From: Eledone cirrhosa
Taxonomy: Eukaryota
DNA: 64,000 nt
Assembly (NCBI GenBank): GCA_964016885.1
Contig: OZ024740.1
Location: 128,836,001-128,900,000, forward strand
Direction: 5' to 3'
Of this stretch, positions 2,123 through 63,163 are shown in pieces; position 1 is the first letter of the stretch; every line of letters starts with the position of its first letter. The position numbers and the translations under genes were made by a program. Under the pieces are notes generated by a model. The model had not been told where the DNA came from and searched no databases. It worked only from the letters and a program-made list of their open reading frames with translations.

Positions 2123-4600
2123 TTAATTAAAATAACAGATTAAAGTTTAAGCAAAGAATCGCTGCTTTCAACCTTAACGGGATATTCTGAAACTAAAAAA
2201 GTCAATCTGTGAACGCAGAAGTAAATATTTCAAAAAACGTTGCAACCGAAGGAAGACAGGAAGACGATACTTTGGTTCGTGGAAACGTTCCTTGGCAAAG
2301 AACGGAACAGAAACGAAGATAATACGTCATTATTTGTTGCGGTGAAAACAATTACACACACAAAGACAAAACCACGTTTATGGTATAAATGAAGTCGTAG
2401 ACTAATATTCTTTTAGGTGGTTCATGGAGACGTTCTCTGGCAATGAACGAAAAAAACGAATATAATACGTCATTATGTGGGGTGAGAGAATAATTACACG
2501 CAAATACAAAACCACGTAAATGGTATAACCGAAGTCGTAGACAAAAATTCCATTTAGGAAGCTGAATGATTCTCGACTTCAAAGTTAATAATAATGTAAA
2601 TACAAACACGGATAATTAAAATTAAACATATACATACCCGCATCCATATACGTACATACACAAGCATACGCGAAATCATTCGCCATAGTTATGCAAATAC
2701 AAGTTCGTACACAAACATACAACAAAACGCACGCACACACATAACCCATGCGACGCCTGTACCCGCACACATACGAACGTATACACCAAATACACATAAA
2801 AATATATATTAAAAAAAATATATATATATGTGTGTGTGTGCGTGTATACATAATTAAATAAACGTATATAAATATACACACATAAAGACGTATATAACGC
2901 GCGCACACACATACCTACATGTAAATACACATATATTCACGGAATCGTCAACCGAAACACAACGTACATATATACACACACCCTACATGCGTACGAACAC
3001 TCATACTCACACATACGCAAAAATCACGTATACACATAACCAAATGCACATGTACCAGTATATATAATATATACGCCATATGATATACAAGCAAATATAC
3101 GTACGAGAAAGTATACGTACCTTCACAAAACATACAGGTAATATATACTTACCTATACAAATAAGTAATGGTATAAACATAACATATACTTCGCTACCAC
3201 ATCAAGACGTAAACTATCCGCGTATAGTTCGTACTCTCCGTTAGGGTATAATGTGGGGCTGTAATACAGGAAAGTTTTGTGCAATTTATATTTACAAGCC
3301 GAAATTGCCTCAGATTCTTTGTTTAAGATGTGGTCTTTGGCGTAGAGTATTTCCAGGGCCTCAGCGGCGCATAGGTCACATGATATTTTATTTCCCTTAT
3401 ACGATTTAGCCCTAGCTAGGATCTCCCAGTGTAACTTATATTGGGTGTGGTTGTCTTTTAAACTCTAGATATAAGCTGAAAATGACGTCATATTCCTTCT
3501 TAAAGGGTTAAGAAAAGAATGGGTATGCCTGTAAAGACGCTGCTTGAATCTATTGGCGGTTCACCCTATGTAGGCCCTACGGGTCGGGGTGTTTCAACCT
3601 TACATTTGTACACAATGTTACTAGAGAGGCATTTCCCGGATAGTGGGCAGTCAACCCGATTCCTACAATTACAGTTAGTACTAACTACAGGGTTGCACGT
3701 GTTCCTACGGCTAGGTAATTTAGCTAAATTTGAAGCTACGATGTTATGTGCAAGGTTAGGAGTCGTAGAGTAAACATTTTTAATGGTATTTCTATTAAAA
3801 AGTTTACTATATTTATGTGCTGGGGGAAAATCCTTCATAAAAACGCATAGAAGGATCTTATCTAATGGTGTGGCCACCTCCATATTATATTGTGGGTTAT
3901 ACTATATAATGCGCCAGGATCTATTTTTCCTAGGGTTATTCTCGTACTCTGTATATGCTAACTTATCGACAAATCCTGTCCGAGCAAGAGCTTCACTGTA
4001 ATATGTGGAAGGGTCCTTGAAAGTATGCTCGTTTGTAGATAGACGGGAACGCCTTAAAGAAACGTTTCTTACCAGGTTCTTGGTTATGCTGGCAGGGTGG
4101 TTAGAATGCTTACTTATGTAATTAAGCGAATCATTCGGCCTCCTATACGGGTAGTGCAAGCCATTCGACAAATTGAGGGTAACGTCGAGGTACTTAACGA
4201 CCAAGAGGTTGGCCTAAATCTGTATGGAGAGGTTGAAGCCTTTAAAGAAGGCTGTGAATTCTTTTCGGAACTTGTGGCAAGCACGTGGGCCGCACTTTGT
4301 CATGGTCAAAAGACCGTCTTCACGGTACAAACCACCGCCCACGTTGGGGAATTCTTCCTTGATAGAGAAAAAAAGGAAAAGCCGATCAGATCAGTAACCT
4401 CCGCAGAATCGCTGGCGCCCATACTCACGCCGAATGGGGTACTATTAGATGTTTTAATCCAAATAGAGTCGTAGAAATTAATCGCTGACTTACGGGCATT
4501 GGGGGTGACATCAAGTTCGAAATCCTTAACCACTGTGAGTGTTTTAGCGAAATTGATAGCTCTAAGAAGAAGTGGTAATGTCATGGAGGAAACGTTCATA
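2123..4600 (-). mobile_element. Penelope-like retroelement, Naiad-type, 5'-truncated and frameshifted: RT fragment, GIY-YIG endonuclease and ~1.1-kb 3' UTR
   Basis: Minus-strand peptides FGVSMGASDSAEVTDLIG, GGLYREDGL (~4311-4340; YRDDG-type catalytic motif), VKYLDVTLNL...YISKHSNHP and CNCRNRVDCPLSGKCLSSNIVYKCKV. The UTR holds two ~140-bp direct repeats (~2280-2570) and ends at a (TA)n tract. Confidence 0.9.
2144..2194 (-). ncRNA. Hammerhead ribozyme motif, family A (Naiad-type 3' UTR); core mutated in this copy
   Basis: Reverse complement AGTTT CAGAATA TCCC GTTAA GGTT GAAA GCA GCGATTCTT TGC TT AAACT. Confidence 0.6.
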
Positions 4601-4699
4601 GGTTCGGAGAGCCCTTTCGTTCAATCAAGAGGTCAATGAGACCATGGAAATAGGTCTACATAGCTCGACTTAGAAATAAGTCCTCCTTCTCCATGCGTT

Positions 4700-5550
4700 A
4701 CAAGCAGTAACGAAATGTCGCAGCAGAGACATTAAAAACATCGAAAGATGTGTTATGGAGGATGGTGATGTTAATCTAGAAGCCAACTTCGGATCTATAA
4801 ATAAAGTACGTAGCAAGAAGTCTTCTCTCACATATTCTACCGAGAACGCGCCAACAGTAAATCATGTGTCAGAGAGATGCATCCTCGTGATGTGGAGAGA
4901 CTAATTTGCTGATCACTGAAACCCGATCGACTTAGCATATTTTGATGTACACGAGGTGCATCAGACAGAAAGGAATAATCTCTCGGATCCTGAGGTCACA
5001 GTTGTAATTAAAGAGATTTAATGTGGCAAAGCCACTAGAGAAAAAGAACTTCGACTCGAAATTTTAAAAGACGTAAAAACAGAAGATATTCACATGCTGA
5101 CTCGTGTGTACTGGGTGACCTACATTTCTGGAAAAGCACCTAAGCAATGGCAATCATAAGTGAATCTCGATATTAAAAAAAGAGACAAGATAGATTGCTC
5201 GTTTTACAGAGGGTACACCTTTTTAAGCTTTCTCGATAAAATCTATGCCAAGTTTTTGGCAAACAGATGTCGGGAGATTGTCACGTACAAGCTAGCCGAG
5301 TAAAATGTGGTTTTCGCCCTGGAAGAGGCTAGCTGAACAAATATTCTTATTGTGGCAGGTTTTGAAAAATCATAGGAGATGTATTCCTGCTTTAGCATTC
5401 GAAAAGGTATATGACCGCATTCCATGGGACCTGCTGAGGACGGTTTTACAGAAGTATTGGATCGATGGTTAGCTTCTTTTTGCCCTAATATCTCGGTACG
5501 AATGTCCAATGATTTGTGTTCGGATAAATGGTGCTAAATCAAAACCATCT
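4700..5550 (+). mobile_element. Decayed RTE-clade LINE, reverse-transcriptase fragment
   Basis: Interrupted + strand translation GKAPKQWQS...KKRDKIDCSFYRGYTFLSFLDKIYAKFLANRCREIV...CGFRPG, typical of N-terminal non-LTR RT motifs; stops and frameshifts present. Confidence 0.75.
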
Positions 5551-5593
5551 AATATGTGTGTACACACGCACGCACACGCACACACACCAACAC

Positions 5594-5641
<48 letters not shown>

Positions 5642-7680
5642 TGTGTGTGTGTGTGTGTGTGTGTGCGTGCGTGTGTGTGTATGTATGTGTGTGTGTGAGT
5701 TTGTGTGCGTTTGTGTGTGTGTAAGTGATTCCCTATCTGAGGTTCTACAATGAGTGTTTCTGATGATCTAAGAACGGAACAACAAATATCCTGATATTCT
5801 ACAGAGGAGTGTTCCCTTAATTCTCTTCCGAGAGAGATTCGCTGCAATACAACTCGACAATGCTGACCATTTGAATTAAAAATAAATTGTAAATAAATTG
5901 CTGATTTTAAATAGTTTCCTTTAACACAATTTTTCTCATATATCTTGAGGCAGCCATATAATAAAATCATATCTGCATGTGGAAAATGTTGCATACATAA
6001 TTAACATTATACACACTTTATAATGCATATTTAAAGTGAATATGATGGTGTAAGAAAATATACCATACTAATGCCGCTTCAGTAGTTCATATTATGCTCA
6101 ATTGATTTTTGGCTAACATATTCTGTTAAATATCTCCAATTGTCAATCATTCAGTTCATTATGAATACAACATTCAATGAAATACATATGTTGATATCTT
6201 ATTACATTGTAACCACGAAATATCATTACTTCAATGCCCCCTCATAGGTTACGGCATTAATGCTCCAAATTATTCTAAAGTCAAATTGCATTCCAAGGCA
6301 AGGAAGTACGATGTTAGCTCCCCAAACATCCGACGAATCAAGGTATGTTGAATCGAATGGAATACATGTTTACCGGTCCAAGTGTTAACGCATGGAATAA
6401 CATCAATGCCACAGCTTTAACTGAATTCCATAGCCAAAAACAAACAGCGATATTGTATTCACAAAATAAGATGAATAGATATAGTTGACTACTCTAAGAA
6501 GCAACATTATTTTACTTTTAATGTGCATTATTACTTTGGAAGTTCAAAATCTGTTTTAGACGTAGGTTCTCTTATATTTGTTCATACTGTGAGCACATTC
6601 CATCATGCCAAAGTTGACTCGATATTTATAAATTTCATTATGCAACATCTAAATCCTGTAAAACAAGGTGCAATTATATTACACTCAGATGATATAATAT
6701 ATAACTAAATCCAATTATCACATGGCAAAGGCATATCCTGCTCTGCAATCATGTTCACATACTCTATCCGATTATGACCTACTACGATAAATCATAAACA
6801 TCATTACGTCTTTACTGAATTTTAAAACTAGAAAATCAATTCACGAGGAAACCGCAATGCCTGATAATATGGTTTCAGTAAATTATATTAAGATAAAACA
6901 ATACTCCTATTGTAAGTAGTAACATATATAACATACTACAGAAATTTAGCGAATGTATGAGTAACAATAGGATTATTTGACGCTAGTCATTATTCTTACG
7001 ACACTACTCAGTTATCAATGCAGATCATACATATAAAGTTTATCAATGATTAGTCACTGACAAATGTTGATTTCATATCATAAAAATGGATACACGTAAT
7101 GGTAGTAGAGCACATCGCTCCATGGAGACCATGGACAAATTGACTTCAGTATCAACTGAATGGCAATTCACATCCGGAGATTGGTTCTACATATTAATAT
7201 TTTCATTTTCGATGCATGTATGTATAATTGCTTATCCAATATGCAAGTGAAACATATCTAGTCCAATTACTTAACATTTCCTATCAATGATTCAGTATTA
7301 CCGTTGGTTATTTTACAAGGAGGTTGATAAGCAACTTATCGAAATCATGATTTTCGCTTAGTTAAGAAATACCAACTGAAAGAAATAACTACAATGCGAA
7401 TGAAATTTGGTTGAACATTTATTTTGTCACAACAATAGCATTCACTGTTAACTATGCACGTTAATACTGTTAACTATGCACAAAGAGCCAAATACACACA
7501 ATCAACTCCATATAATTGTGTTCCTGTCTGTGTGTTATGAGCATGTGTATTATGAGCATGTGTATGTAAGAATATATAGCTATACGTGCTTGCAAGCGCA
7601 CACATATATCAAACACAAACAACCACTCACATGCACACGCACACATACACCCACACAAATACCTATATACATTCATATAT

Positions 7681-7870
7681 ATAACGAAGGAGTTGTGGTA
7701 AGGAACCAGATGGACCATAACGCACCAGACAACTCAATACTTAGGGTTGTAGAGTGTGTAATAGGAAAATGTATGACCCCGACGGCAGAGCTAAAGCCGT
7801 TTCGACGGCTATTTCTTCAGAAATAGCCGTCGAAACGGCTTGAGATCTGTCGTCGGGGTCATACATTTTG

Positions 7871-7874
<4 letters not shown>
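7681..7874 (-). mobile_element. Short TA-embedded repeat, family B (3' half of a hammerhead), with ~55-bp-arm palindrome at 7761-7874
   Basis: Near-identical sequence at 20523, 50531, 55072 and 58787; contains AATAGCCGTC GAAA CGGC...GCCG TC GGGG. Confidence 0.8.
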
Positions 7875-7941
<67 letters not shown>

Positions 7942-7947
7942 TATATA

Positions 7948-8601
7948 CAGGGTGCGGATGATATTTGTTCGCAATTTTCAACTTCTAATATTATGCAAAA
8001 TGTTTTACTTCCGTTGTCACTCTTGTCTTCATAAAAACAGTGACTATATTTCCATTATTTATTTTGAGGGCATCAAGCTGAACACTGATGGCTACATCCG
8101 CGTTCTGAGCGAGGTAGTAAATCTCTGGATCGACCAGGTAGGATAGCTGCAGGTAGGCCGTACGTGTGGCACCAAGAGCAGCGCCCTGCCATAACAGCCG
8201 AAAGACCCAAGCCTGGCTGTCAGAGAAATTCGTAGAACACACTTCACCTGACATCTGGGCTCCCAGCTCGCCTGACTGCAACCCCCTGGAATTCTCTGTG
8301 TGGGGCGCAGTGGAACGAGACACCAACAGATGTAGTTGCAATACGAAAGACGATCTGAAGGCCAGGATCACAAGTGCCTTTAGGAGCCTAAGTCGGGGGA
8401 CAGTGACGAAGGCCTGTAGCCGGTTCCGAGGCCGCCTTGAGGCCGTCGTCAAAGCCAATAGCGGGTTTATCAAGTGGGATAGAAAGAACAAGACATGAAG
8501 AAAAACTGACCCATGTTTGATAAATACATCTTAAAAAATAAAACTACTGTGTTAAACTTTCCCAGACAGTAATCTTGCGAACAAATATCGTCCGCAGCCT
8601 G
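7948..8601 (+). mobile_element. Internally deleted Tc1/mariner transposon (maT/DD37D-like)
   Basis: 27-bp TIRs CAGGGTGCGGATGATATTTGTTCGCAA / TTGCGAACAAATATCGTCCGCAGCCTG, TA on both flanks, and transposase C-terminus APCHNSRKTQAWL...WAPSSPDCNPLEFSVWG (ORF 8166-8498). Confidence 0.92.
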
Positions 8602-8741
8602 TATTTATATATATATATATATATATATATAGTAATAATAATAAATTTGAAGACTAAAATCCAAAGAGGGCTCGATAAGGATAAATATATATCAGATATA
8701 TAAGAACCGTAGAGCAAATATTTATTAAAATAACAGATTAA

Positions 8742-8792
8742 ATGTTAAGCAAAGAATCGCTGCTTTCACCCTTAACGGGATCTTCTGAAACT
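8742..8792 (-). ncRNA. Hammerhead ribozyme motif, family A (CAGAAGA core)
   Basis: Reverse complement AGTTT CAGAAGA TCCC GTTAA GGGT GAAA GCA GCGATTCTT TGC TT AACAT; stems II and III intact. Confidence 0.7.
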
Positions 8793-9732
8793 AAAAAAGT
8801 CAAGCTGAGAACGCAGAAGTAAATATTAAAAAAACGCTGCAACCGAAGGAAGACAGGAAGACGATACTTTGGTTCGTGGAAACGTTCCCTGGCAAAGAAC
8901 GCAAAAAAACGAAGATAATACGTCATTATTTAGTACGGTGAAAACAATTACACGCAAAGACAAAACCACGTTTATGGTATGAATGAAGTCGTAGACTAAT
9001 ATTCTATTAGGTGGTTCATGGAGACGTTCTCTGGCAATGAACGGAAAAGACGAAGAAAATGCATCATTATGTGGTGCAAAGAGGACTATTACACGTAAAG
9101 ACAAAAGCACGTAAATGGTATAACTGAAGTCGTAGACTAAAATTCTATTCAGGAAACCGAATGATTCTCGGCTTCAGAGTTAAGAATAAAGTAAATAATA
9201 TACAGCGGTAATTGAAATTTATACATACACGCATCCATATACATACAATCACAAGCATACGCGAAAACACTAGCCATGGGTATGCAAATACAAGCACGTA
9301 CAAAAAAAACCAAAAACATGTGTGTGTGTGTGTGCGTGCATACACAACGAAATAAACGTATATAAATATACACACATAAATACGTATATAGCGCATGTAC
9401 AAACACACACCTACATGTAAATACAAATATCTTAGCGGACGCACGTCAACCAAAACACAAAGTACACATATACACACATCCTACATACGTACGAACCAGC
9501 ATACTCACACGGGCGCAAAACTCACTTATACACATAACCAAATGCACATGTACCAGCATATATAATATATACGCCAATAACATTTACAAGCAAATATACG
9601 TACGAGAAAGTATACGTACCTTCACAAAACATACAGGCAATATATACTTACCTATACGAATAAGTAATGGTATTAACATAACATATACTTAGCTACCACA
9701 TCAAGACGTACATTATCCGCGTATAGTTCGTA

Positions 9733-10365
9733 CTATCCGCTAGGGTATAATGTGGGGCTGTAATACTGCAATTTATGATTACAAGCCGAAATTGTCTCAG
9801 ATTTTTGGTTTAAGAAGTGGTCTTTGGTGTAGAGTATTTTCAGAGCCTCAGCGGCGCAGATGTCACATGATATTTTATTTACGTTATACGATCTAGCCCT
9901 AGCTAGGATCTCCCAGTGTAAATTATATTGGGTGTGGTTGTCTTTTAGACTCAAGATATAAGCTGAAAGTGACGTCATATTCCTTCTTAAAGGGTTAAGA
10001 AAAGAATGGGTATGCATGTAAAGACGCAGCTTGAATCTATTCGCGGTTAACCCTATGTAGGCACTACGGGACGTTGGTGTTTCAACCTTACATTTGTAGA
10101 CAATGTTACTAGAGAGGCATTTCCCGGATAGAAGGCAGTCAACCCGATTCCTACAATTACAGTTAGTACTAACTACAGGGTTGCACGTGTTCCTACGGCT
10201 AGTTAATTTAGCTAAATTTGAAGCAGTGATGTTATATGCAAGGTTAGGAGTCGTACAGTGAGACATTTTAATGGTATTTCTATTAAAAAGGTTACTATAT
10301 TTATATGCTCTGGTGAAATGCTTCATAATAAGGGAGAGAAATATCTTAGCTAATGGTGTGGCCAC
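9733..10365 (-). pseudogene. GIY-YIG endonuclease domain of the Penelope-like element (open 210-aa frame, no RT upstream)
   Basis: CNCRNRVDCLLSGKCLSSNIVYKCKV...AYIGLTANRFKLRLYMHTHSF...WEILARARSY...CDICAAEALKI...LNQKSETISACNH. Confidence 0.88.
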
Positions 10366-10549
10366 CTCTCTATCGGTATGTTTTTGTTCTGTTTATTTTC
10401 ATTTACAGTCGTTCTTTCGCTATCGTCTATGGTTTTTTTTCTTCCTTCATAACTATTCCTCTTTGTTATAACGCACTGTGGTCAGGTGTACAGTCTTCAA
10501 TGCGTTGAAACATCAGCGACCCACAACAGACAATGTCTTATGTTTCCCG

Positions 10550-10924: not shown

Positions 10925-11068
10925 CATTACAAAAGCTGACGTCCGACGAGCTTTTGATTCCAGAGTTGGGCCAGATCGATACAGATAAAGCCTTGAGCTG
11001 ATCAATAGCAAAACGCGTGTTAGCAAACAATAAACGTAATGAAGGCTTAACAAATCGTCCTTGCATTA
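10921..11068 (+). mobile_element. Short TA-embedded repeat, family C, with decayed hammerhead and AATAAA
   Basis: CCGACGA GCTTTTGAT...ATCAATAGC AAAAC GCGT GTT; homologous to 21525-21645, which keeps GAAACGCGCGTC. Confidence 0.65.
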
Positions 11069-11291: not shown

Positions 11292-11850
11292 ATTTATTAA
11301 AATAACAGATTATAGTTTAAGCAAATAATCGGTGCTTTCACTCTTAACAGGATCTTCTGAAAGTAAAAAAAATCAATCTGTGAACGCAGAAGTAAATATT
11401 TCAAAAAACGATGCAACCGAAAGAAGACAGGTAGACGATACTTCGGTTCGTGGAAACGTTCTCTGACAAAGATAATACGTCATAATTTGGCGCGGTGAAA
11501 ACAATTTCAAGCAAAGTCAAAACCACATTTATGGTATAAATGAAGTCGTAGACTAATACTCTTCTCTGCTAATGAACGAGAAAAAAACGAAGATAATACG
11601 TCATTATGTGGAGCGTCGATAACAATTACACGCAAAGACAAAACCACATAAATGGTATAACTGAAGTCGTATACTAAAATTCTATTAGGAAACCGAATGA
11701 TTCCCGGCTTCAGAGTTAAGAATAAAGTAAATAAATTACAGAGGTAATTGAAATTAAATATATACATGCACGCAACCATATACGTACATACACAGGTATA
11801 CGCGAAAACACCCGCAATGGGTATGCCAATACAAGCACGTACACGAAAAA
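11292..11850 (-). mobile_element. Naiad-type Penelope-like 3' UTR fragment (family A hammerhead at 11314-11364)
   Basis: Direct similarity to 2123-2710 and 8720-9305. Confidence 0.85.
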
Positions 11851-11894
11851 ACAAGTTTTGATTATGTCGATCGATTGGTTATTGATTAGGCGAT

Positions 11895-12006
11895 ACCCGC
11901 TGATGAAGCCGCATAAGCCGATTGTGCATGTTTGCATAATATATGTAGACAGATGGTGTAGTGCACCTTACTGCTGCATTAGTGCGGCAGAAACTCGAGT
12001 CTTGGA
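11895..12006 (+). ncRNA. Hammerhead ribozyme motif, family D
   Basis: CTGATGA (11900-11906) A GCCGCA...TGCGGC A GAAA C TCGA G TC (12001); palindromic minimal stem III; stem I weak. Confidence 0.65.
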
Positions 12007-12150
12007 ACCTTATAGTCACCCGTTTTACTTGTGTTGTGTTGAGGCAAATAACTATGTGTATACTCTGGTAACATATCTTACATTGCCCATTTAGTGCGCT
12101 GAGATACAACCGGTACTGGCATTGATAAATATGCTGGGTCCGTCAACCCC

Positions 12151-12185
<35 letters not shown>

Positions 12186-13886: not shown

Positions 13887-13942
13887 ACTGCCTGATGAGG
13901 TCATATCCATTCAATGGCTATCATCGAAATATATATGGCAGT
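13887..13942 (+). ncRNA. Hammerhead ribozyme motif, family E (cleavage-site nucleotide mutated to G)
   Basis: ACTGC CTGATGA GGT...ATC GAAA T ATAT A TG GCAGT AATAAA, inside a TA-flanked ~165-bp insert (13823-13987). Confidence 0.65.
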
Positions 13943-14257: not shown

Positions 14258-14312
14258 ACTGCTATATATATTTCAGTGACAGCCATCTTTGGCTGTGACC
14301 TCTTCAGGCAGT
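14258..14312 (-). ncRNA. Hammerhead ribozyme motif, family E (intact)
   Basis: Reverse complement ACTGC CTGAAGA GGTCACAGCCA AAGA TGGCTGTCACT GAAA T ATAT A TA GCAGT AATAAA; lies in a TA-flanked insert ~14208-14682. Confidence 0.8.
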
Positions 14313-14679: not shown

Positions 14680-14762
<83 letters not shown>

Positions 14763-14765
14763 TAC

Positions 14766-15226
<461 letters not shown>

Positions 15227-15960
15227 ACGGATGGTTCCTCGCACTGGCTCTACGTACTCACGCATGCGTCGTACGAGTTGTATGTATTTTCGAACGCATC
15301 GACCCATGTACGTATCGCACATGTGCCTGGGTGGCCGCATATGTACACGCCGACGAGATGAGGTTGCTCACAGGCTGGGGACCCATACTATTTTAAGGTT
15401 GTCCAGGGGTGTATTCAAGCACGCATTGACATCTACACGTGCCTATATACACATCCGTACATAAACCTACATATATACATGCGTGTGCATGAGACATGTG
15501 CATGTCTGCACGCATCGGCGTTGCATGTTGATTATATCTCGTGGGATTAAACATTTGGTAGAAAGGATATAAGAAGGGATGTTGAATAGTGATGGTGAAA
15601 TTACTGATACAAATGTGGTGATGTAAACAGTTGTGTTGAAGTGTATGGTGCTAGTGGTTTGTGTGTGCCTCAATGGTATGTGGTATGTGTTGGTGCGGGT
15701 GAAGGTGATGGATGTATGGTGATGTGTTTAGTGGTGAGGGCATTGTAATGAATGCGACCAAGCATTTATTCAACATCACGTCTTACAACTCGCACAGCGC
15801 GTGCATGGGCCCATGGGGCCAGTGCGTGTGTCCAAGATGACCGCACGAAAACTACATAACCCCTGCAAAAGAGCAGACTCATATAACAAGGCACTCATAT
15901 CGTATTCCTTGTACTCCCGCCCCACGCGTGCCAATGTGGGGGTGATGTATGTATGGGCGG

Positions 15961-16602
<642 letters not shown>

Positions 16603-16603
16603 C

Positions 16604-16806
<203 letters not shown>

Positions 16807-17011
16807 GCTGAGTGGGTAGAGAATTGAATTCACAATCTTGAGGTTGTGAGTTCAACTTCTGGACCAGGCGATGCGTTATGTCCTTGAGCAAGACACTTTA
16901 TTTCAAGTTGTTCCTTCTACCTGGAGTTGCGACCGATAGATAGTATTAGCAACTGGAAAGACCGACGGAACATTGTTTCTTCGGTCCGATTTGACGAAAG
17001 TCGATCGACTG

Positions 17012-17042
<31 letters not shown>

Positions 17043-17778
17043 GGACGGATGGTTCCTCGCACTGGCTCTACGTACTCACGCACGCGTCGTACGAGTTGTA
17101 TGTATTTTCGAACGCATCGACCCATGTACGTATCGCACATGTGCCTGGGTGGCCGCATATGTACACGCCGACGAGATGAGGTTGCTCACAGGCTGGGGAC
17201 CCATACTATTATAAGGTTGTCCAGGGGTGTATTCAAGCACGCATTGACATCTACACGTGCCTATATACACATCCGTACATAAACCTACATATATACATGC
17301 GTGTGCACGAGACATGTGCATGTCTGCACGCATCGGCGTTGCATGTTGATTATATCTCGTGGGATTAAACATTTGGTAGAAAGGATATAAGAAGGGATGT
17401 TGAATAGTGATGGTGAAATTACTGATACAAATGTGGTGATGTAAACAGTTGTGTTGAAGTGTATGGTGCTAGTGGTTTGTGTGTGCCTCAATGGTATGTG
17501 GTATGTGTTGGTGCGGGTGAAGGTGATGGATGTATGGTGATGTGTTTAGTGGTGAGGGCATTGTAATGAATGCGACCAAGCATTTATTCAACATCACGTC
17601 TTACAACTCGCACAGCGCGTGCATGGGCCCATGGGGCCAGTGCGTGTGTCCAAGATGACCGCACGAAAACTACATAACCCCTGCAAAAGAGCAGACTCAT
17701 ATAACAAGGCACTCATATCGTATTCCTTGTACTCCCGCCCCACGCGTGCCAATGTGGGGGTGATGTATGTATGGGCGG

Positions 17779-17823
<45 letters not shown>

Positions 17824-18164
17824 ATATAGAAAGGCTTCAACAGCACAAGAACTGTTTCATTCGGGAGAAATCATCATGAAGCTGGCTGTCCAGTAATATG
17901 TTGGTATTCACATCTTTTCTGGTGGTAGGAGAGGGTGGTGATTAGGATGGGTGGAGGCCATTGGTTGATGGGTTTAAAGGAAAAGGAATTTTTGGCACCC
18001 CCAGAGCGAGCGAACCTGTCAATAGAATTATTTCTGGTAAATATAGTTTTTAAAGAATACCCTTTTCTTTAAACCCATCATCCAATGACCTCCATCCATC
18101 CCAATCAGCATCCTCTCCTATCACCAGAAAATATATAAATACCACCATATTACATGGACAGCCA

Positions 18165-18213
18165 GCTTCCTGATGATTCCTCCCGAATGAAACAGTTTGT
18201 GTCCTGTAGAAGC
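18165..18213 (+). ncRNA. Hammerhead ribozyme motif, family F (duplicate)
   Basis: Identical to 16361-16409. Confidence 0.8.
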
Positions 18214-18299
18214 CTTTGTATACTAAATATGTATACTCTGCTCTGTATTGAGTACCTTACTTACTGTGGTTGCCCCCGATTGAACCGGGGATAAACTTT

Positions 18300-18361
<62 letters not shown>

Positions 18362-18363
18362 AG

Positions 18364-18397
<34 letters not shown>

Positions 18398-18402
<5 letters not shown>

Positions 18403-19290
18403 CTATAAAGTTGACGGCCGTATGTAGGTAACAACCTTTCCGCCAAACGGCTGGACCAAACAGCACCAAATTTGCCCCATAGATGTAACTTTTTCCAAGT
18501 AAAACTGACGGAATTTTTGTCTACTGAATGTTGTTAAAAGATTAAAGACATTATTTAAATATTCAATTCTTTAACATTTTCAAATGTCAACGCTTCCGGC
18601 TATACGGCATTCCTAACGTCTTCCCTAACCAAAGTATCATCTTCCTGTTTTCTTTCGGTTGCAACGTTTTTCGAAATATTTACTTGTGCGTTCACAGATT
18701 GGGTTTTTTAGTTTCAGAAGATCGCGTTAAAGGTGAAAACAGCGATTCTTTGCTTAAACTTTAAACTGTAATGTTAATATATATATATATAAATATAATT
18801 ATATATTTGTGTACAGATATTTTTGCATACACAAAAACAAAATATAAACAAACGTATTCATTTCACAAAAGCACAGACGGCTTATCGTCCTTGTTAATGC
18901 CGATATGCCACACAAAAAGTCCTAGCCTGGCCGCAAGATCAGATTTTCCAGAAGAAAAAATGTTACTAGAGCAACAGAGAGACTAAGCTTCGCGATTACC
19001 TTCAACAAAGCTCAGGGTCAAACCCTAAAAGTGGCAATCTGGGAAAACCATGGTCAATTGCATACAGGATGCTCTAGGGTGAGCTCGCCAAACAATCTCT
19101 TCATCTTTGTTCCCGAGGGCCGAACAAAAATATTGTATACTCTGAGGCTGTAACAATGTAATTTATGTATTTTCTGTTACTTGGAATTTCAATTATGGTT
19201 GTACAAATTATTGTAAAGTTTGTTAAAAAATGTGTGTGTTCTCTATTCAACCTTTATTGTTGTAACTATCAAATTGTTTTAACCTACTGG
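18398..19290 (+). mobile_element. Non-autonomous Helitron remnant carrying the PIF1-type helicase C-terminus (18980-19152)
   Basis: RLSFAITFNKAQGQTLKVA...HGQLHTGCSRVSSPNNLFIFVPEGRTK/NIVYSEAV (helicase motifs V-VI). The 5' part TACTATAAAG...AAACGGCTGGACCAAA...AAATTTG resembles invertebrate Helitron 5' ends. The 3' end is not resolved. Confidence 0.75.
18620..18778 (+). mobile_element. Naiad-type 3' terminal fragment (family A hammerhead at 18710-18760) inside the Helitron remnant
   Basis: Reverse complement of 2125-2285; AGTTT CAGAAGA TCGCGTTAAAGGT GAAA ACA...TGC TT AAACT. Confidence 0.8.
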
Positions 19291-44554: not shown

Positions 44555-47500
44555 ATGACCTCTCTCAGAATAGGCAGCAAAAATGCACGTGGATTGGGGT
44601 CATCATGGAAGAAGGGCCACCTGCTCAACGACCTCAGGTCACTAAACATAGATGTAGTGGCCATCAGCAAGACCAGTATCTCCGAAGCACGGGCCGTCGC
44701 ACCGATCTTCGGCGGCTACGTTGTGTACGCATCTCCCAGCCGTCCGGCATCGGGGGGAGGATTTGCTGTTCTTTTTCGGAGAGGTTTGGAACTCGCAATA
44801 TGGGCCATCTTCCTGGGCCCAGAAGGTAAGTTGGTGGTGCTAGACGTGACCAGCGGAGACGGGCAAGTTTTCAGGCTAGTGGCCGTCTATGAACCGACAG
44901 GAGCAGGGCGGCCTGATTTCTTCCGGCGTCTTTAGTGTTAGTGGCCGACTGGAACGGGATCTTAGATGCCCGCTGGGACTGTGTGGGATTAGCGGATAGG
45001 CGAGGAGGGTGCAAGAGCCTCACCAACCTGCTTAGGCGTTTTGAACTGTCTGACAGGCAGCGATTGGATTTCCAGAATGTGCCAATGTGGACTTGGACTA
45101 ATCGTATAGGGTCATCCAGATCATATCTAGATAGAGTAGTTTGTAGAGAAATAGATAGGGTTAGCATAGGCTGTCCACAATTCAAGATAGTCAGCTACAC
45201 GGACCACAAATTCGTGATCTGTGTGCTTGACTTAGATAGGCTTCATACACGAGGACCCGGCTACTGGAAGCTAAACGCGTCCTTACCAGCGCGCAAGGCC
45301 TACAGAGACCGGATTAGCGAACTAGTTAAGCGGGCGTTGACGGGGGCCATCGTCAACAACAAGTGGTGGTTTGCTCTGAAAAGAACAATTATAATAGAGA
45401 CCATTAGGTTTAGTAAGGCTTTAGAGGGAGGGAGAATTAGTTAGAAAATTAGACGAGGCGCTTAGTCTAAGACATGAGCGACCGACGTACTTGCGGCGAA
45501 ATTGGCCCTTGACCAATTATTCAATGTAAAGCACGAAGGCTGTGTTGTCAGAGCTAGGGTGCGTGCTCTCAGACACGAGGGGACGAAAGCCGTTCAATGG
45601 GCCCGAGTGGCGGAGGCGCGTCTTGGCAACAAAGCCACGATCCGGTCTTTGGTGGACCACGACGAGCGCTTGCTACTCGATCCCGGGCAAATGTGTGAAG
45701 CTTTTCAGCGACACCGCGCCAGTTGTTCGGGGGTAGCGGTGGGCCGGATCGAGGGATGGACTTTAGTGTCTACCTCGACGGACTGCCGCTGCTCTCGGCC
45801 ACTGAGGTGGAGTGTTCCGAAAAGCCGATAACAGCCGCTGAAGTACGGGAGGCAATGACTAGCTGCACAAGGGGTAAATCGCCTGGTTTGGATGGTCTGC
45901 CTTATGAACTTTACGTACAGATGCCAGACTTGTTCGGAGGCCTCTTGGCGGACGTCTACTGCAACTGGCAACAGAACCGCAGAATTCCCAGCTCTGTGAG
46001 CCGAGGAGCTGTGGCGCTACTGAGAAAGGATCCGAACAAGGGGGATAACATAGATAATGTTTGGCCCATAACTCTGCTAAACACAGAGGTCAAGATTTTG
46101 GCCAAGGTGCTAGCAAAGAGGTTGGCGCTTGTCGTTGGTGGTCTGGTGGGAGAGGCGCAGACATGCGCCATTCCCGACAGATCCATCCACGACAACCTCC
46201 ACCTCATGCGATACATCGTAGAGAGGGTAGCTAGGGAACTTGGCACGGGTGGGTCCTTGATCAATTTAGAACAGTCGAAATCTTTTGATAGGGTCGACCA
46301 TCGTTACCTAGCGGCAGTCCAGAGGGCGGCTGGCTTTGGGCCCGTCTTCAGAAGCTGGATCGCTGCCATGCACAGCTACATCTGCTCTGTGGTGAGAGTG
46401 AAAGGTCACCTTTCGGAACCGTTTAACATCATGCGCTCGGTCCGCCAAGAATGTCCCCTCTCGTCCCTCTTGTACGTATTGACTCTCGAGCCATTACTGC
46501 ACAAACTGGAGACTTTGAAGGGAGTCCCGCGCGAACTAGGATGCGGAAGATCCGTGTCAGCATATGCGGACGATGTCACCGAAGTCGTGTCGAACGCCAA
46601 ACACATGGAGGCGATCGGCACTCCACTAAGAGAATACGAAGCGGTGACAGGAGCAATGATCAACCAGGAAAAGTCAGTAGGCCTGCAGCTCGGCACCTGG
46701 AGAGGCAGGTCCATGCCGTCCAACAGCGTCGTCGGGCCCTGGACGGACGGACCAGTTAAATTGCTCGGGTTCTGGTTCGGTCCGGATCTCTAGACGGACA
46801 AAATCTGGGACGAGGCGACGAGCAGGGTGCCTTCTCTCAACCAGAAATGGGCGGAGAGGAAGCTATCCCTGAAAGGTCGAGCAGAGGTGGCTAACGCGTA
46901 TATCGCGTCCGTCATCTACTACCGCCTGACCGTCGTACCGTGTCCTAAGCCCCGCCTGACTGCGCTGGAGCGTTTGCTCTTTCGCATTTTGTGGAAGGGA
47001 CGCGCTCCGATGACAGGCGGTCCATCTTCTGTCAACACACGCTACGTGGAGGGCTGGGCATGCCTCAGGCTACGACATCTCCATCTCTTCCTCGACGGTG
47101 ATCAGGTGTTGTCGCCGTTTGCTAGACACGTCTTTCCCCAGCTCGTCTCCTTGGCGGAGCTGCAGTCCTGGGTCAAGCGAAGATCGAGAGGGAGCGCTTG
47201 GAGACTGGAATGTCTTCAGGCGCTCACAGCCCTCGACCAATCGGGCAATGTGATCGGTGGAAACTCCACCTTGGATTTCTATAGAGGATTAGTGGAGGGG
47301 AAGAGCGACGACGTACTTGGGGAAACTCTAGGCGTCGACGAAAATCAACTAGCCAATCTCTTCGGAAGAACTTTCCGGCCAGGGCCTATGGACAACTTCC
47401 AGAAATCCCTGGCCTGGCAGTTTACTGAGGAGCTTTCCCAGTTCGGGATAAACCCTAGAGGCATGGAGATGCCGTCAGCCGGGCATGTCCGAGATGCGCG

Positions 47501-47902
47501 CAGGGCGACGAAACCGACCTGCACGCACTCGTTCAGTGTCCGAAAATTGCTGACTTGTGAGTTTATGTCGAACACCTGCTGTCGCGTGTAGGACAGATCT
47601 GGCTATCAGCTGAGTCCATCGTGAGGATTTCCCCGCCCTATTCCTTTAGCCGGGAAGTGCAGGTAGTTTTTATATGTCTGGTGGCTATGGCGAAAGAGAT
47701 AGTATGGTGGTCACGTTTGAAAGGGATGAAGACGAGCACCTACCTCTTCGGTGATGCCCTGATTAACTTTTTCAAATTTCATTTGAAAAGGAAAATCAGG
47801 GTAGAAAGGGAAGTGCTCTCTTCCCAGAATGTTGTTGAAAGATGGGTGAGAGAAGCAAGTATGGCCCGAGTGAATGGGCCTACTCTGAGTATGTGTCTGT
47901 AA
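44555..47902 (+). pseudogene. LINE ORF2 (AP endonuclease + reverse transcriptase), disrupted
   Basis: SKNARGL, ADWNGIL, SYLDRV, YTDHK, GPGYWKLN, KSPGLDGLPYELY, WPITLLNTEVKILAK, KSFDRVDH, VRQECPLS, AYADD (46563) and LSLKGRA. Confidence 0.92.
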
Positions 47903-48154
47903 ATTAAAGGTGGAAAACTGGGAGAGGGCACTTGCCCTGGTGGTCAGGGTCACTGTGGCTTTTTAATGGGCTTTCTCCACGAATGTCCATCGGAAGTCTC
48001 CCCCCTATTGGGGAATTTTTTCATTGTTCTATTATTACATCCTCTGTTTCTTGTTGTTTACACACAAAAATACCCATTTGTCCCGCCCTGTATTGTCCTG
48101 TACTGTCCTTAATGTCTACTTTATGTAGACCCTTGTGGTTAATAAAGAAAGCAA

Positions 48155-48199
<45 letters not shown>

Positions 48200-48207
48200 G
48201 GTGGTGG

Positions 48208-48396
48208 GTTGCGGTGGATTGGCTGTATCGGTAGAGGGTCGGACGCCATGCTTTGGCGCATAGAGTTACAGCCCTTGCCCTTCTGAGTTCAAATCCCGCC
48301 GAGGTTAACTTTGCCTTTCATCCTTACGGTGCCGATAAAATAAAGTACCAGTAATGCCCTGTGAAATTCCTGGCCTTATGCCCATAACAGTAACAA
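48208..48396 (+). mobile_element. SINE family 1, full-length, with (ATT)n tail
   Basis: Match to 23309-23496. Confidence 0.9.
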
Positions 48397-48410
48397 TTAT
48401 TATTATTATT

Positions 48411-48843
48411 ACTACAGTTGCATTTATCTTGCTTTATGTTCATACGAGTTATCAGCAAGTCACAACCAGTGTCCTCAAGATACAACAAGGTCCGCACATG
48501 TGCAAGAAAGAACATACATAAACACACACAAACAGCCTCAGATATTCAACACGTATCGGAGGGTTCTTGATGTTCCCAGCAAGCATGCGTTTTGAAGTGT
48601 TCCAAAATGCGTGGCTGGACTAATCTTCTTTAACCATCTTTGGAAACTTTTTGAGATAGTACCTAGTGCACTTATAACAATCGGGACGGCCTTGATTTCA
48701 TGGCAGTTCCAAATACTTTTTAACTCACACTTTAAGTCCTTGTATCGGATAATTTTCTCCCTCTCTTTTTCTTGCACTCTCGTGTCAAATGGGCAGGCTA
48801 CATCTACAATCAGGCACGATCTGTTTTCCTTGTCCCAATCCAC
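48411..48843 (-). mobile_element. 3' end of a second R4/Dong-type RLE retrotransposon in (TAA)n
   Basis: MVDWDKENRSCLIVDVACPFDTRVQEKEREKIIRYKDLK...VPIVISALG...LQNACLLGT; TAA-type repeats on both sides; the 3' UTR differs from the 25728 copy. Confidence 0.88.
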
Positions 48844-50530
48844 CATTATTAGTATTATTATTATTAATATTATTATACTTTTTCTTCTTCTTCTTTCCTG
48901 CATCTAGCATCCGAAGAAACTGTTGGACGGCATAGATACACTTCTCCAGGTACCGAATTACAAACCCAGTGATTTATACTGGCGGACTTTTGCTCCAAAC
49001 AAACTTTAATATTCCTTTAAGTAGTTGTCGACCACCTCGATATCCGATGTGTTTAACACCATCAGGTTACCGTCATCCGCATATGGTGACACAGTTCTTC
49101 TGTGTGCCGGTTCGAGCTGGATGCCCTGCAAAATCTTTTGGTGCTGCTGTTAGTGTTGTCTATTGCAGTAACTATTTTTACTCTGTCTGTAGCTTAAGAT
49201 GTTCCGGCTACCAGTGTGTTGTTTCGCTTTTGATAGCGATGTTTGCTGGTGATATAGTCGTTTGGGGTTTGGAGGTATTGGAGTTATCAGCAAGGTCACT
49301 CTGTAGTTCCCTGTCTTCTGTTGAGGATATAATGGTCTTAAGCGGCCAGTTTCCCTAAACAGATGGCAACGTGCCTTTCAGCTCTGAACAATGCCATAAA
49401 ACTCCATCAGACATAGAGGATTCAGATCATGGGGACTTTATCTGGTTTGATACAGGATCACCTCAATAATCATCCCTGAAAAGGATTCTCGTTGCGATCG
49501 TTTCAAAACCATGTCAATAACTACCAGATATTCACTTCTGATGGGATCCCGGAACTTCTTCCTAAATATGATGGGTAGCCCACATTCTTGTCGTTCTAGA
49601 GGATACCAACTGAGTGTGCGACGACACTGCTTTGCCCTAAAAGAGCACGGGAATACCATTGGAGTTGGTGGAAATACAATTGCAGGTAGTGGTTAAGGTA
49701 GTGACAGTGTTCGTGCTAGTGTTCTTGTTGATTGTTGTTGTGTTCGTTTTATTTTGTAGTTCTTGTGATGGTGACGTTGTTGCAGTATTTTTTGCTTGTT
49801 AGAATGTAGAAGTTCGCTTAACAAAAATTACGTCCTACCTTCTATCCCAAGCCGTCGTTTTATTGCAATGTATAATTTTAGAAAACACTGCCCCAACTCA
49901 AACTTTTGTGTGAAATTGTGTAACGGATCTTTTGCTAGTATGTAAGGTAGATAGCAGCGGAAAACCAAGGCCTCCGGCTGCGTAACGCTAGAATTCCCTG
50001 AAATTTAGATTATGGTGAAAAGATGTCCTTAGATTGCTCAAGCATATACAGGGTAATTTCAAATGCAAGCTGTTCATGTCATCAAATATTTGCAACAGTC
50101 ATTGTCGAAATCGATGTTGATCTATTCTCCATTTTTTCCAATGCTCCTACACGATCAGGATTTAAGTTGGGTTGCAGAAAAATGACAATGTGAATGTTAC
50201 GATGTATTCACTGTCAAATATAATTTGGTGTGTAAATATGTCCAGCGAAATTCCTCCATGAGTTAGCATGGCTACCACCGCACGTCTTTATTTACAATGC
50301 AATCAAAAGTGAGAAAGCTTGAAACGAAAATCGAAACAAACTTTCAGAGAGAGTTCAATCTAAAGAACACTGGATGAAATTCCATCTGATTACAAACACA
50401 ATGAATATGAATATGTGCGGATTCAATAATTGTGCATTGTATTGCATTGTATTGTCTTCATCAAAAATGCGAATCAATCAATTTGTTTGCATTATTCAAA
50501 TTATTACCCATTTTATATATATATATATAT

Positions 50531-50724
50531 ATAACGAAGGAATTGTGGTAAGGAACCAGATTGACCATAACGCACCAGAGTACTCAATACTTAGGGTAGT
50601 AGAGTGGGAAATAGGAAAAAGTATGACCCCGACGCAGAGCTCAAGCCGTTTCGACGGGTATTTCTGAGACTGAAATAGTCGTCGAAAAGGTTGAGCTCTG
50701 CCGTCGGGGTCATAGTTTTTCATA
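50531..50724 (-). mobile_element. Family B repeat, palindromic copy
   Basis: Same structure as 7681-7874 (palindrome 50611-50724). Confidence 0.85.
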
Positions 50725-50727
50725 TTA

Positions 50728-53504: not shown

Positions 53505-56322
<2,818 letters not shown>

Positions 56323-56417
56323 TATATACATATATATGTATATATATATATATGTACATAAATATAAATATATATATATATATGTATTTAAATATATATA
56401 TATATATATATATACTA

Positions 56418-58666: not shown

Positions 58667-60200
58667 GACTTATTTGTGTTTACAACAAATTTTAACCAAT
58701 CCTCTTGACAACTACAATCTTGCCATATAAGGAAGTACCCCCTTGACAAGTTCGGCTATTTATTCACCAGGCTAAAAGTTCTAATTTAGTCCAGAAATAG
58801 CCGTCGAAACGGCTTGAGGTCTGCCGTCGGGGTCATACTTTTTCCTATATATATATATATATATATATAAACACACACTCACACACACAGACACACACAC
58901 ACACACACATTTATATATATATATATATATAACAACACAAAAACAAAACCACATAAGAATTATTTCACGATATACAGACAGATGCTCAAATTGGATCAGT
59001 AGGAATAGTAACTTCTTCAGTGTAATTTTAATACAACAACATTGCACTTATCCTCAATAGAGAGTGTGGTGGTGCTCATTTCTACAGTGAAAGCTGGTAA
59101 TTGAGAAATATATTAATGACAAATATATTTACAATATGAGTATTGTTGAAATTGTCGACTATGCTAATATGTTACGCTGTTGAAGATACAATTCGTAGGC
59201 CGTGTCTGAGGAAATTCACCGATAAGAATAAACACCATATCTTATTCTAAAATGAAATTGTTTGGAATTTACACGAAATGTCCGTGATGCAATTGTTTTC
59301 ACGAGGCGTTTCTATTTTTTTCTTCACACTTAATCTTTTTTTTTTTTATTTTTCTCCCTTGTATTACTTTTTGTCTAATCAGCAATGATGGCTAGAGGTG
59401 GATTTATAATTACAAAATAAACACATTCCCGCTGGTTTTGTAGAAACAAATGCAGATATCAGATATATCACATATATGACACGATAATATTAATTAATAT
59501 TATAGCCTCAGTCTAAATAGAAAATGCGAACTCAACATATTTTTTACATAGCAAGATATATTTAATTATTCTTATCAGAACCATACCGTTGAGCTGATAG
59601 GAAAAAAAACAAAAAAACAATCTGGATATCGTTAATAGTTATTAATAATTTTGGGCGAGAATCGCAAGTTACAAGATGAATTTAACAGATATTTTTCAAT
59701 ATGACGTAATGCTTAGGAAATATAACCTAATAATTGTTTCTACTTTTGGCACAAGCCACCAATTACCCAGTGTATTACTGGTACTTTATTTTATCGACCC
59801 CGTATGGATGAAAGGCAAAGTTAACCTCGGCGGGATTTGAACTCAGAATGGCAAGGGCCGTAACTCTATAGGTCAAAGCATGGCGTCCGACCCTCTACCG
59901 ATACTGCCAATCCACCGCCCTAATATAACCTAATATAACCTAATAAGATGGAAGTGATATTGAGGTAAATACAAGTTGCATGCTGTCTGATAGAAGAAAT
60001 TGTCCAAGTATCATAGGAGTTATGGCTTTTTTAAAAATAGAAACTTAGACACATATACACGCTTAATAACTACGTTCAACAAACAATAACAGAACAGGTA
60101 TATGTGCATATATATATATATACATACATTCACGCATATATACACATATATATATAATTATATATATATGTGTGTGTGTGTGTGTCTGTGTGCATATCTG

Positions 60201-62094: not shown

Positions 62095-62515
62095 ATATTA
62101 AAGTTACTATTTATAGTCATGTATGTATATACTATAAACAACTATAAACAGGCAAGGTCAGTAATTTATTACTACCTTATTGCCAGTAAGAGAAATAGCT
62201 CAATGTAAGAACATCAGTTGTTTTACAGAGCAGTAATATAGATTACACAAGTATCAAAGTTATGTTTAAAATATTTAATCGCTGACAATTGTTTCTGCCA
62301 AACTTAGGCTTGGTTTGGAAGAAAAAATTATAAAAGTATAAAACTATAAGAAAAAATTATAAAAGTATAAAACAAGCACTTTGATACTTGTGTATTCTAT
62401 ATATATATATATATTTGGAAAAAATGAAACGAAATTTCATTTCTCACTCTTAGTACGACTGTTACTTAAATATAAGTATGTATACGTACATACATATATG
62501 TATACAGACGTACAG

Positions 62516-62579
<64 letters not shown>

Positions 62580-62722
62580 GCACACATATATATATATATG
62601 TACGTTTTGGGTTTACCGAACATTTATTATAATGCTCAGTTTGTTTGTAAACAAACAGTCCAAATTAAGCCCTACAGTGTTTAGTAACCATCGTTGCCCT
62701 TTTGTTCAACACTGACAAAGGA

Positions 62723-62765
62723 ACGATGTACTAGTTTCAAGCTTATTAGCTATCGTCAGCATCGT
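62723..62765 (-). ncRNA. Minimal hammerhead ribozyme, family J
   Basis: Reverse complement ACGATG CTGACGA T AGCT AATA AGCT T GAAA C TA G TA CATCGT. Confidence 0.85.
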
Positions 62766-63120
62766 ACACCTTCCTGCCAGATGATTAAACGTTTGAAAGT
62801 ATATACTTTCCTTATGCATATTAACGGCTGAGCAGCCTAATTTGTACATACGTACATACATATATATATGTGCATGTATGTATATATATACATACTACTG
62901 TACGTCTGTATACATATATGTATGTACGTATACATACTTATATTTAAGTAACAGCCGTACTAAGAGTGAGAAATGAAATTTCGTTCCATTTTTTCCATTT
63001 ATAGTTTTCGGTGCGCCCGGCCGACTAACTCTCTCGATATGCAAATTAGGTTGCTCAGCCGGTAATATGAATAAGGAAAGTATATACTTTCAGACGTTCA
63101 ATCATCTGGCAGGAGGGTAT

Positions 63121-63163
63121 ACGATGCTGATGATAGCTAATAAGCTTGAAACTAGTACATCGT
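63121..63163 (+). ncRNA. Minimal hammerhead ribozyme, family J
   Basis: ACGATG CTGATGA T AGCT AATA AGCT T GAAA C TA G TA CATCGT; palindromic ACTAGT stem III; predicted cleavage after 63157. Confidence 0.88.

Follow-up and report, generated by a model that had tools for sequence, protein, structure and literature searches.

Predicted hammerhead ribozymes at the ends of Hydra-clade Penelope-like elements and in putative non-coding retrozymes inserted in (TA)n tracts of Eledone cirrhosa

A 64,000-nt stretch of the Eledone cirrhosa genome (assembly GCA_964016885.1, contig OZ024740.1, positions 128,836,001 to 128,900,000; here called the window) carries ten repeat families, A to J, each with its own type I hammerhead ribozyme motif. 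It is likely that in families A, B, E, H and probably C these hammerheads, lying in pseudo-long terminal repeats (pLTRs), mark the 3' ends of Penelope-like elements of the Hydra clade, and that D, G, I and J are retrozymes mobilized in trans by the reverse transcriptase (RT) and GIY-YIG endonuclease of the Hydra elements. An earlier reading of the same DNA, made from its letters (the sequence-only reading), had taken the islands between TA tracts for a guild of non-coding, ribozyme-bearing retroelements moved by GIY-YIG Penelope enzymes. The guild is only partly true: it describes D, G, I and J, whereas A, B, E, H and probably C are tied to RT/GIY-YIG open reading frames (ORFs). Penelope enzymes as the movers are likely, given the TA targeting and a shared end signature.

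All 24 hammerhead loci that had been picked out in the window align at that very place to a hammerhead-bearing copy of their own family, and the claim of about ten families, each with its own ribozyme, is thereby borne out. In the window most copies have suffered damage or are incomplete. A strict type I descriptor, which accepts a 10.1/11.1 mismatch and a palindromic helix III, passes four loci (Table 1), against none in 30 local dinucleotide shuffles, and the other 20 of the 24 fail it. The suggested check against Rfam Hammerhead_1 was negative, since cmscan of the window gave no hammerhead at the gathering score and none among the best 150 of 217 matches at E ≤ 1.

The wider genome was sampled as 76 stretches of 10 kb at round coordinates (760 kb of a 2,996-Mb assembly). 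This sample contains 76 motifs in 26 clusters, far above the roughly 1.5 motifs in shuffled sequence, as the sequence-only reading requires. There are 58 canonical CUGANGA cores, nine UUGANAA (U3-A8), eight CAGANGA (U4A) and one CCGANGA (U4C), compared with 0–2 motifs per core class in six shuffles, while the one-sided C3/G8 swaps UUGANGA and CUGANAA are both absent (0 and 0). Scaled up, the density is about 100 motifs per Mb, or one per 10 kb, and some 2–3 × 10^5 genome-wide, a rough estimate because inverted pairs cluster and the descriptor differs from published ones. Chance matches in AT-rich repeats would explain why Rfam is without a hit in the window and why just four of 24 loci pass the strict descriptor, but they are refuted by the excess over shuffled sequence, by a compensated core swap that occurs in pairs only and by family-wide conservation, and their probability is practically nil. 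The hammerheads of window and genome are real by these measures, and self-cleavage is predicted for them. Four of the 26 clusters are window families. The 22 others include some abundant ones (13 and 8 matches); five copies of such clusters lie 0.8–1.5 kb below a GIY-YIG end, and the U3-A8 core is common to several unrelated clusters.

For each family, about 30 best matches out of 900–4,000 candidates were fetched, chosen by likeness to the window copy and not at random. The hammerhead (core plus stem I) is intact in 54–91% of a family's fetched copies: A 30/41, B 40/50, C 20/37, D 29/32, E 45/60, F 40/53, G 26/36, H 31/40, I 27/31 and J 46/54. The CUGANGA core, at first attributed to all families, is found in D, E, F, G, I and J. 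Family B has the compensated U3-A8 core, and A, C and H depart from the canonical U4/A6 through family-fixed changes, namely CAGAAGA (U4A) in 37/41 copies of A, CCGACGA (U4C) in 24/37 of C and CCGUCGA (CCGTCGA; U4C with A6U) in 33/40 of H. Stem covariation, as had been expected, was found as a small number of events, counted without a formal statistic: in stem I of F (GCTTC/GAAGC 42, against GATTC/GAATC 7), in stem I of G and its loop III palindromes (CCGCGCGG 15, against CCGTACGG 11), in stem II between the sister groups E1 and E2, and in the paired-only C3-G8 swap. A palindromic helix III occurs in C, D, E, G, H and J and fits dimeric cleavage, since a design of this kind is described as cleaving as a dimer (PMC4209133).

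Judged by their protein motifs, A, B, E and H are pLTRs of Hydra-clade Penelope-like elements with RT/GIY-YIG ORFs, and C probably is one as well, so that about half of the ten families would be 5'-truncated ends of autonomous Hydra elements. An RT followed by a C-terminal GIY-YIG domain is present in A, B, E and H, as are CxCX5C, YIG and CxxC-E; DKT and CxH occur in B, E and H, RWR was matched in B only, and the 5' part of the RT with the DKT position is missing in A. (TA)n insertion, a pLTR, 5' inversion and a tail are all present in the same four families. The assignment rests on motifs, and likeness to Hydra-1_Obim was judged by eye, without an RT tree. A Neptune-like identity of the ORFs was rejected, as the protein motifs show Hydra. 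A Pfam search recognized none of the window's Penelope fragments, and the GIY-YIG match on the H protein is weak (E 0.0049, below cut-off), although it is above cut-off on one homologue. A search for homologues yielded 323 proteins, each some 700 aa long and nearly all without a name.

The sequence-only reading had linked family A alone to an ORF. That link stands, as A hammerheads and RT/GIY-YIG ORF fragments share a strand in the window, but elsewhere in the genome B, E and H are linked too, and C probably. B is the pLTR of a 3.1-kb pLTR-ORF-pLTR element (locus L159). The E hammerhead lies 0.7–1.1 kb downstream of the ORF end on the same strand in 25 of 30 loci picked by ORF end, and that of H about 1.4–1.5 kb after the GIY-YIG ORF in loci L299 and L300, with L301 adding the RT. 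One sister copy of C (76% identity, canonical core) lies 1 kb below an ORF end. Upstream, where the sequence-only reading proposed to look, RT/GIY-YIG ORFs were found for A, B, E, H and probably C, whereas D, G, I and J close on themselves without one. The B loci had been read as 3' halves, which holds for four sites; the fifth is a complete hammerhead with the U3-A8 core. Short B copies (the two fold-back loci of Table 1 at 7767–7874 and 50617–50727, and about 90 other matches) begin 38–66 nt past the core start, within the long stem II loop or close to it, and many are arranged as fold-back pairs; stalling of the RT at the hairpin and a diverged subfamily are both possible causes. In the ORF-linked families C, E and H, an AATAAA lies within 8 nt past stem I, a possible poly(A) signal beside the cleavage site.

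In their sequence organization, D, G, I and J are ORF-free, circularly permuted non-LTR retrozymes, dispersed, TA-inserted and longer than those reported before. The upstream sequence rejoins the downstream end after 842 nt in D, about 480 in G, about 698 in I and about 430 in J, and the longest ATG ORF is 48–75 aa. Copies span 0.35–1.7 units over 120 loci. Those longer than one unit number 3/30 in D, 15/30 in G (two loci counted twice), 13/30 in I and 26/30 in J, the queries favouring long copies. Tandem copies with two ribozymes occur at three distinct loci in G, at one in D, in one row with two cores in I and in 0/30 of J. Long tandem arrays of 150–450-nt units were not found, as the maximum is 1.7 units in 120 loci and the units measure about 430–842 nt. 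In contigs from three sequencing runs (sets of unknown kind, from one sample and possibly the assembly's own), the J end at +307 is followed by TA in 55–70 contigs each, and J hammerhead variation at 10% or above is confined to N7, loop II and one stem I pair.

All ten families might still derive from autonomous Penelope elements by truncation, the copies with an ORF having gone unsampled. This does hold for A, B, E, H and probably C, and about 30 of 1,000–4,000 candidates per family were seen. It is nevertheless very improbable for the whole set, because D, G, I and J close on themselves within 430–842 nt without an ORF, and because read-through of B enters an ORF, unlike that of D, G, I and J. 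Downstream of 100 endonuclease ends (1.9 Mb; a set enriched for B and E), the nearest hammerhead never belonged to one of these four.

About 525 nt of family F was recovered, at about 28 copies per Mb. Self-closure into a unit was not found, association with an ORF was seen in one case with another repeat in between, and F was not found downstream of the related ORF in locus L406. Upstream extension of F and C was without an ORF in three loci (L408–L410). The weak folding of F resembles that of a pLTR. Its two window loci are one insertion inside a 1.9-kb tandem duplication (14682–18407, 97% identity). Of 74 genome matches scored against RF00163, 18 exceeded the cut-off; the assignment of some matches to F was rejected, as they form a separate repeat family (L001–L018) with a fully canonical Hammerhead_1 above the gathering score.

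The two groups have their pattern of ends in common, with 3' ends piling up at one or two sites and 5' ends scattered. Counted from the predicted cut, the 3' sites lie at +69/+109 in A, at +105 and about 80 nt further on in B, at +65/+136 in F, +251/+307 in J, +383/+523 in I, +155–180 in G and +270–290 in D. An inverted 5' partner accompanies 30/53 copies of J, 8/30 of I, 8/31 of G, 15/52 of A, 13/41 of B and 15/40 of H, and such partners are common in F and C too. As the sequence-only reading had claimed, the ends adjoin (TA)n: (TA)4 lies within -8 to +30 nt of 336 of 466 3' ends, against a background of 10%. At junctions of an element with (TA)7 or longer, scored in the eight families with a read-through template, 111 of 133 overlap the template by at least three TA-phase bases, against 3–12% of template positions. 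The overlap is 3–8 nt, and six families (G, D, J, A, B and F) fit well. This shared signature is anatomical evidence for a proposed Penelope-retrozyme partnership. Overlap in age between families could also point to partners. The median pairwise identity of fetched copies, a measure biased to best matches in every family, is 98.9% in B and E, the youngest, 96.8% in D and H, 95.3% in J, 94.7% in G and 90–93% in F, C and I.

A microsatellite-targeting long interspersed nuclear element (LINE), instead of the Hydra elements, might have moved D, G, I and J. These four are without homology to the Hydra pLTRs, D is without inversions, and LINE-like RT ORFs do occur in the window. The combination of partial tandems with two 3' end sites and with 5' inversions is, by contrast, the pattern described for Penelope elements (PMC8557442), and the ends fall inside the unit at TA runs just as in A and B. 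Controls made up of the LINEs and a short interspersed nuclear element (SINE)-like repeat of the window adjoin TA in 11 of 139 cases, below the 20 expected by chance, and a LINE as the mover appears quite improbable.

The families, ORF links, unit lengths, end positions and TA overlap were established directly; the steps that would produce them are inferred. The Hydra endonuclease would nick (TA)n, and the nicked TA end would pair with a UA run of 3–8 nt at one or two fixed internal sites, 25–450 nt past the ribozyme, and prime the RT. The RT would then read upstream through the uncleaved ribozyme and break off at random, in many cases leaving a 5' inversion. With D, G, I and J as templates it could pass its own start point and yield copies longer than one unit, which would imply a circle or a tandem precursor as template. 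Rare two-ribozyme copies may release a monomer by self-cleavage, probably in a dimeric form, and a host ligase may circularize it and thereby renew the template. Internal RT initiation at two sites on unprocessed RNA, with a dispensable ribozyme, is reported for a Poseidon element in vitro (PMC11167929). A more far-reaching view, put forward tentatively and at somewhat less than even confidence, is that this is the densest hammerhead population described (about 2–3 × 10^5 motifs, at least 26 families) and that its dispersed retrozymes are the first direct footprint of animal retrozyme integration. Hydra enzymes would prime on ribozyme-made RNA circles through pairing of nicked (TA)n to internal UA runs, a rule common to autonomous and passenger elements.

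Several observations weigh against a trans-mobilized, ribozyme-processed origin of D, G, I and J. No 5' end was found at the predicted cleavage site among the family copies, and the genome thus bears no trace of cleaved RNA. The four families have no homology to the five pLTRs at E < 1e-3, and thus no partner element can be named. Within a single copy, the two repeats do not resemble each other more closely than separate copies do (17/35), and a circle is therefore not favoured over a tandem precursor. Inverted 5' partners are rare in D (0/32) and E (2/49), the junction overlap fits poorly in I (1/7) and C (2/6), and the 133 junctions, clustered at about a dozen sites, are not independent. The folding z-scores as circles (D -5.6, G -6.1, I -3.1, J -8.1; -1.5 to +1.4 for the ends of A, B, C, E, F and H) are not unusual, given that eight of 20 random segments of the same repeat-rich genome score below -3.5. 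Ribozymes with a U4A, U4C or U4C+A6U core may have little or no activity, U4C being reported to reduce hammerhead activity (PMC3088659) and A6 changes likewise (PMC7151607). Eight of nine Xenopus dimers reported in a 2026 preprint (10.64898/2026.07.22.740005) were uncleaved, and the Poseidon element is described as priming at a site without homology to its target (PMC11167929).

Some of these points would follow if the same enzymes acted with no circle and little role for the ribozyme, D, G, I and J being copied from uncleaved read-through of tandem sources and their hammerheads being passengers inherited from Penelope pLTRs. Besides the lack of ends at the cleavage site and the unremarkable inner repeats, such a process would fit the maximum copy length of 1.7 units, the wide spread of A, C and H despite non-canonical cores, and the report that ribozyme mutants leave insertion in vitro unaffected (PMC11167929). 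It would not explain why D, G, I and J all keep canonical cores and compensated stems and are predicted to fold stably as circles, and related units are reported to yield abundant circles in coral, mussel and axolotl (PMC7229834). Repeated 5' truncation would also be expected to shorten a purely linear lineage. Passenger ribozymes of this kind are rather unlikely, though far from negligible.

TA tracts of at least 12 nt occupy 6% of the window, against 5% of the genome sample, at 1.95 and 2.0 per kb, and the window is thus typical, not special. The elements had also been suspected of driving TA-tract abundance, by creating or lengthening tracts through telomerase-like addition or slippage at insertion. 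Penelope RT is related to telomerase (PMC8557442), and 147 of 591 TA islands touch a recognized family against 38 expected, a fourfold excess obtained with an incomplete repeat library. However, touched islands are barely longer than the others (median 41 against 35 nt), three quarters of the islands are without a recognized neighbour, and a comparison of empty and filled sites yielded two of 270 cases, neither of them usable. TA targeting alone predicts the association and suffices to explain it. The creation of TA tracts by the elements is unsupported and appears improbable.

The enzyme that moves animal non-LTR retrozymes and the priming on circular RNA are the subject of a hypothesis in PMC7229834 and an open question in the 2026 preprint. 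In the present genome the two groups, autonomous and non-coding, stand next to each other in thousands of dispersed copies that share one end signature, and this points to a candidate enzyme clade, to priming sites and to a target for reconstitution. The widely spread natural core variants (U4A, U4C, U4C+A6U and U3-A8) make it possible to ask whether cleavage is required by Penelope elements at all. Annotation pipelines probably misfile a large fraction of repeats that bear ribozymes; in the main text of an octopus repeat annotation from 2026, ribozymes and Hydra both go unmentioned (PMC13282606).

Table 1. Hammerhead-bearing repeats and associated ORFs in the window (positions in nt from its first letter)
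Position	Strand	Family	Feature
2144–2194	-	A	hammerhead, family core U4A, this copy G8U; 3' end of Hydra-type Penelope-like element
3153–4620	-	A	broken RT/GIY-YIG ORF; CxCX5C linker, YIG, CxxC-E
8742–8792	-	A	hammerhead, intact core, weakened stem I
9733–10392	-	A	GIY-YIG ORF fragment
11314–11364	-	A	hammerhead, weakened stems
18710–18760	+	A	hammerhead, weakened stem II
53611–53660	-	A	hammerhead, 1-nt deletion in stem II
54698–54747	+	A	hammerhead, core and GAAA broken
55265–56248	-	A	ORF fragments, 5'-truncated; inverted end at 56189–56340
56251–56301	+	A	hammerhead inside inverted 5' piece
7767–7874	.	B	two inverted hammerhead 3' halves, fold-back insertion
20612–20665	-	B	3' half
50617–50727	.	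B	two inverted 3' halves
55161–55215	-	B	3' half
58739–58832	+	B	complete hammerhead, compensated U3-A8 core; pLTR of ~3.1-kb Hydra element
10940–11024	+	C	hammerhead, family core U4C, this copy AAAA for GAAA and broken stem I
21548–21608	+	C	3' half without 5' core
11855–12153	+	D	putative retrozyme fragment, unit 842 nt; hammerhead 11896–12005 with stem I mismatch
13887–13942	+	E (E1)	hammerhead, G17 in this copy; pLTR of Hydra element
14258–14312	-	E (E2)	sister hammerhead, passes strict descriptor; predicted cut after 14263
16361–16409	+	F	hammerhead, one stem II mismatch, predicted cut after 16404; inverted partner 16031–16088
18165–18213	+	F	duplicate of 16361, one stem II mismatch; inverted partner 17831–17892
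19533–19774	+	G	putative retrozyme fragment, unit ~480 nt; hammerhead 19654–19723 without stem III, NUH and 3' strand of stem I
22633–22720	+	H	hammerhead, family core U4C+A6U; pLTR of Hydra element
37481–37975	+	I	putative retrozyme, unit ~698 nt; intact hammerhead 37584–37670 passes strict descriptor, predicted cut after 37665
21890–22327		J	third copy, truncated and inverted just past ribozyme, ribozyme itself missing
62410–62844	-	J	inverted 5' piece; intact hammerhead 62723–62765 passes strict descriptor
62845–63385	+	J	putative retrozyme, more than one ~430-nt unit; intact hammerhead 63121–63163 passes strict descriptor, predicted cut after 63157

Other repeats in the window include a degraded non-LTR retrotransposon with an upstream ORF, an endonuclease-like part and an RT (Pfam RVT_1, E 6e-19; 42764–47902, plus strand), and two fragments of a second non-LTR family (25854–27539, plus strand; 48018–48903, minus strand), whose C-terminus, without a Pfam match, presumably resembles the restriction-like endonuclease type. 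A fragment at 8157–8498 (plus strand), also without a Pfam match, is taken to resemble the C-terminus of a Tc1/mariner transposase. The SINE-like repeat of about 190 nt is very abundant (23306–23505 and at least 12 other places) and, pooled with the LINE control, has no TA preference.

Much of this anatomy is already published: TA-inserted Hydra elements with hammerheads, animal retrozymes, many families per genome and the U3-A8 core. The Hydra clade, as described by Craig et al. 2021 (PMC8557442), inserts in (TA)n, carries hammerheads and includes Hydra-1_Obim of Octopus bimaculoides, so the autonomous half of the present system is of a known kind. The likeness extends to the C-terminal GIY-YIG, the DKT and RW motifs, the CxCX5C linker, CxxC and CxH around E/N, (TA)n insertion, the sense-strand hammerhead near the 3' end, 5' truncation, the inverted 5' copy and the optional tail. 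Unlike in that paper, at least five families are seen here, with 3' untranslated regions of 0.7–1.5 kb and tens of copies per Mb, and the cores U4A, U3-A8, U4C and U4C+A6U are family-fixed, whereas the single octopus family listed there has a canonical core.

The retrozymes resemble the animal non-LTR retrozymes of Cervera and de la Pena 2020 (PMC7229834) and of Li, Clavereau and Pollet (the 2026 preprint) in several respects: the units are non-coding, arranged head to tail and equipped with a single type I hammerhead, their GC content is low, helix III is weak or palindromic, the predicted circle is stable, and Penelope elements co-occur with them. They differ in length, with units of up to 842 nt against the 170–400 nt reported, and in layout, being dispersed 0.4–1.7-mers that lie in (TA)n, have their 3' ends at fixed internal sites and carry 5' inversions, whereas the known animal retrozymes are described as tandem arrays. 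They are also without detectable homology to local pLTRs, while 24 of 57 Xenopus families are reported as homologous to a known element (2026 preprint). Literature searches found no published report of cephalopod retrozymes, although supplementary tables, including that of PMC7229834, may list some, and, supplements being outside their scope, none of such a density or of TA-overlap priming common to retrozymes and Penelope elements.

The metazoan Penelope hammerheads of Cervera and de la Pena 2014 (PMC4209133) likewise form many consensus families per genome, mostly as single motifs from truncated elements, with the U3-A8 variant and a palindromic helix III among them, and 16 families are already published for a coral genome. 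Against the density of nearly 100 per Mb found here, published counts, given per genome and with other descriptors, are 4,000–9,000 in coelacanth and Xenopus, more than 6,000 in coral and 126,247 in axolotl. The closest counterpart to the insertion pattern is the Poseidon element PAc of Anolis (Frangieh et al. 2024, PMC11167929), which has two internal RT starts past the hammerhead that give rise to a tail, an AT-rich target and no ends at the cleavage site. PAc is reported to prime without target homology, whereas 111 of the 133 junctions described here have a TA overlap between template and target.

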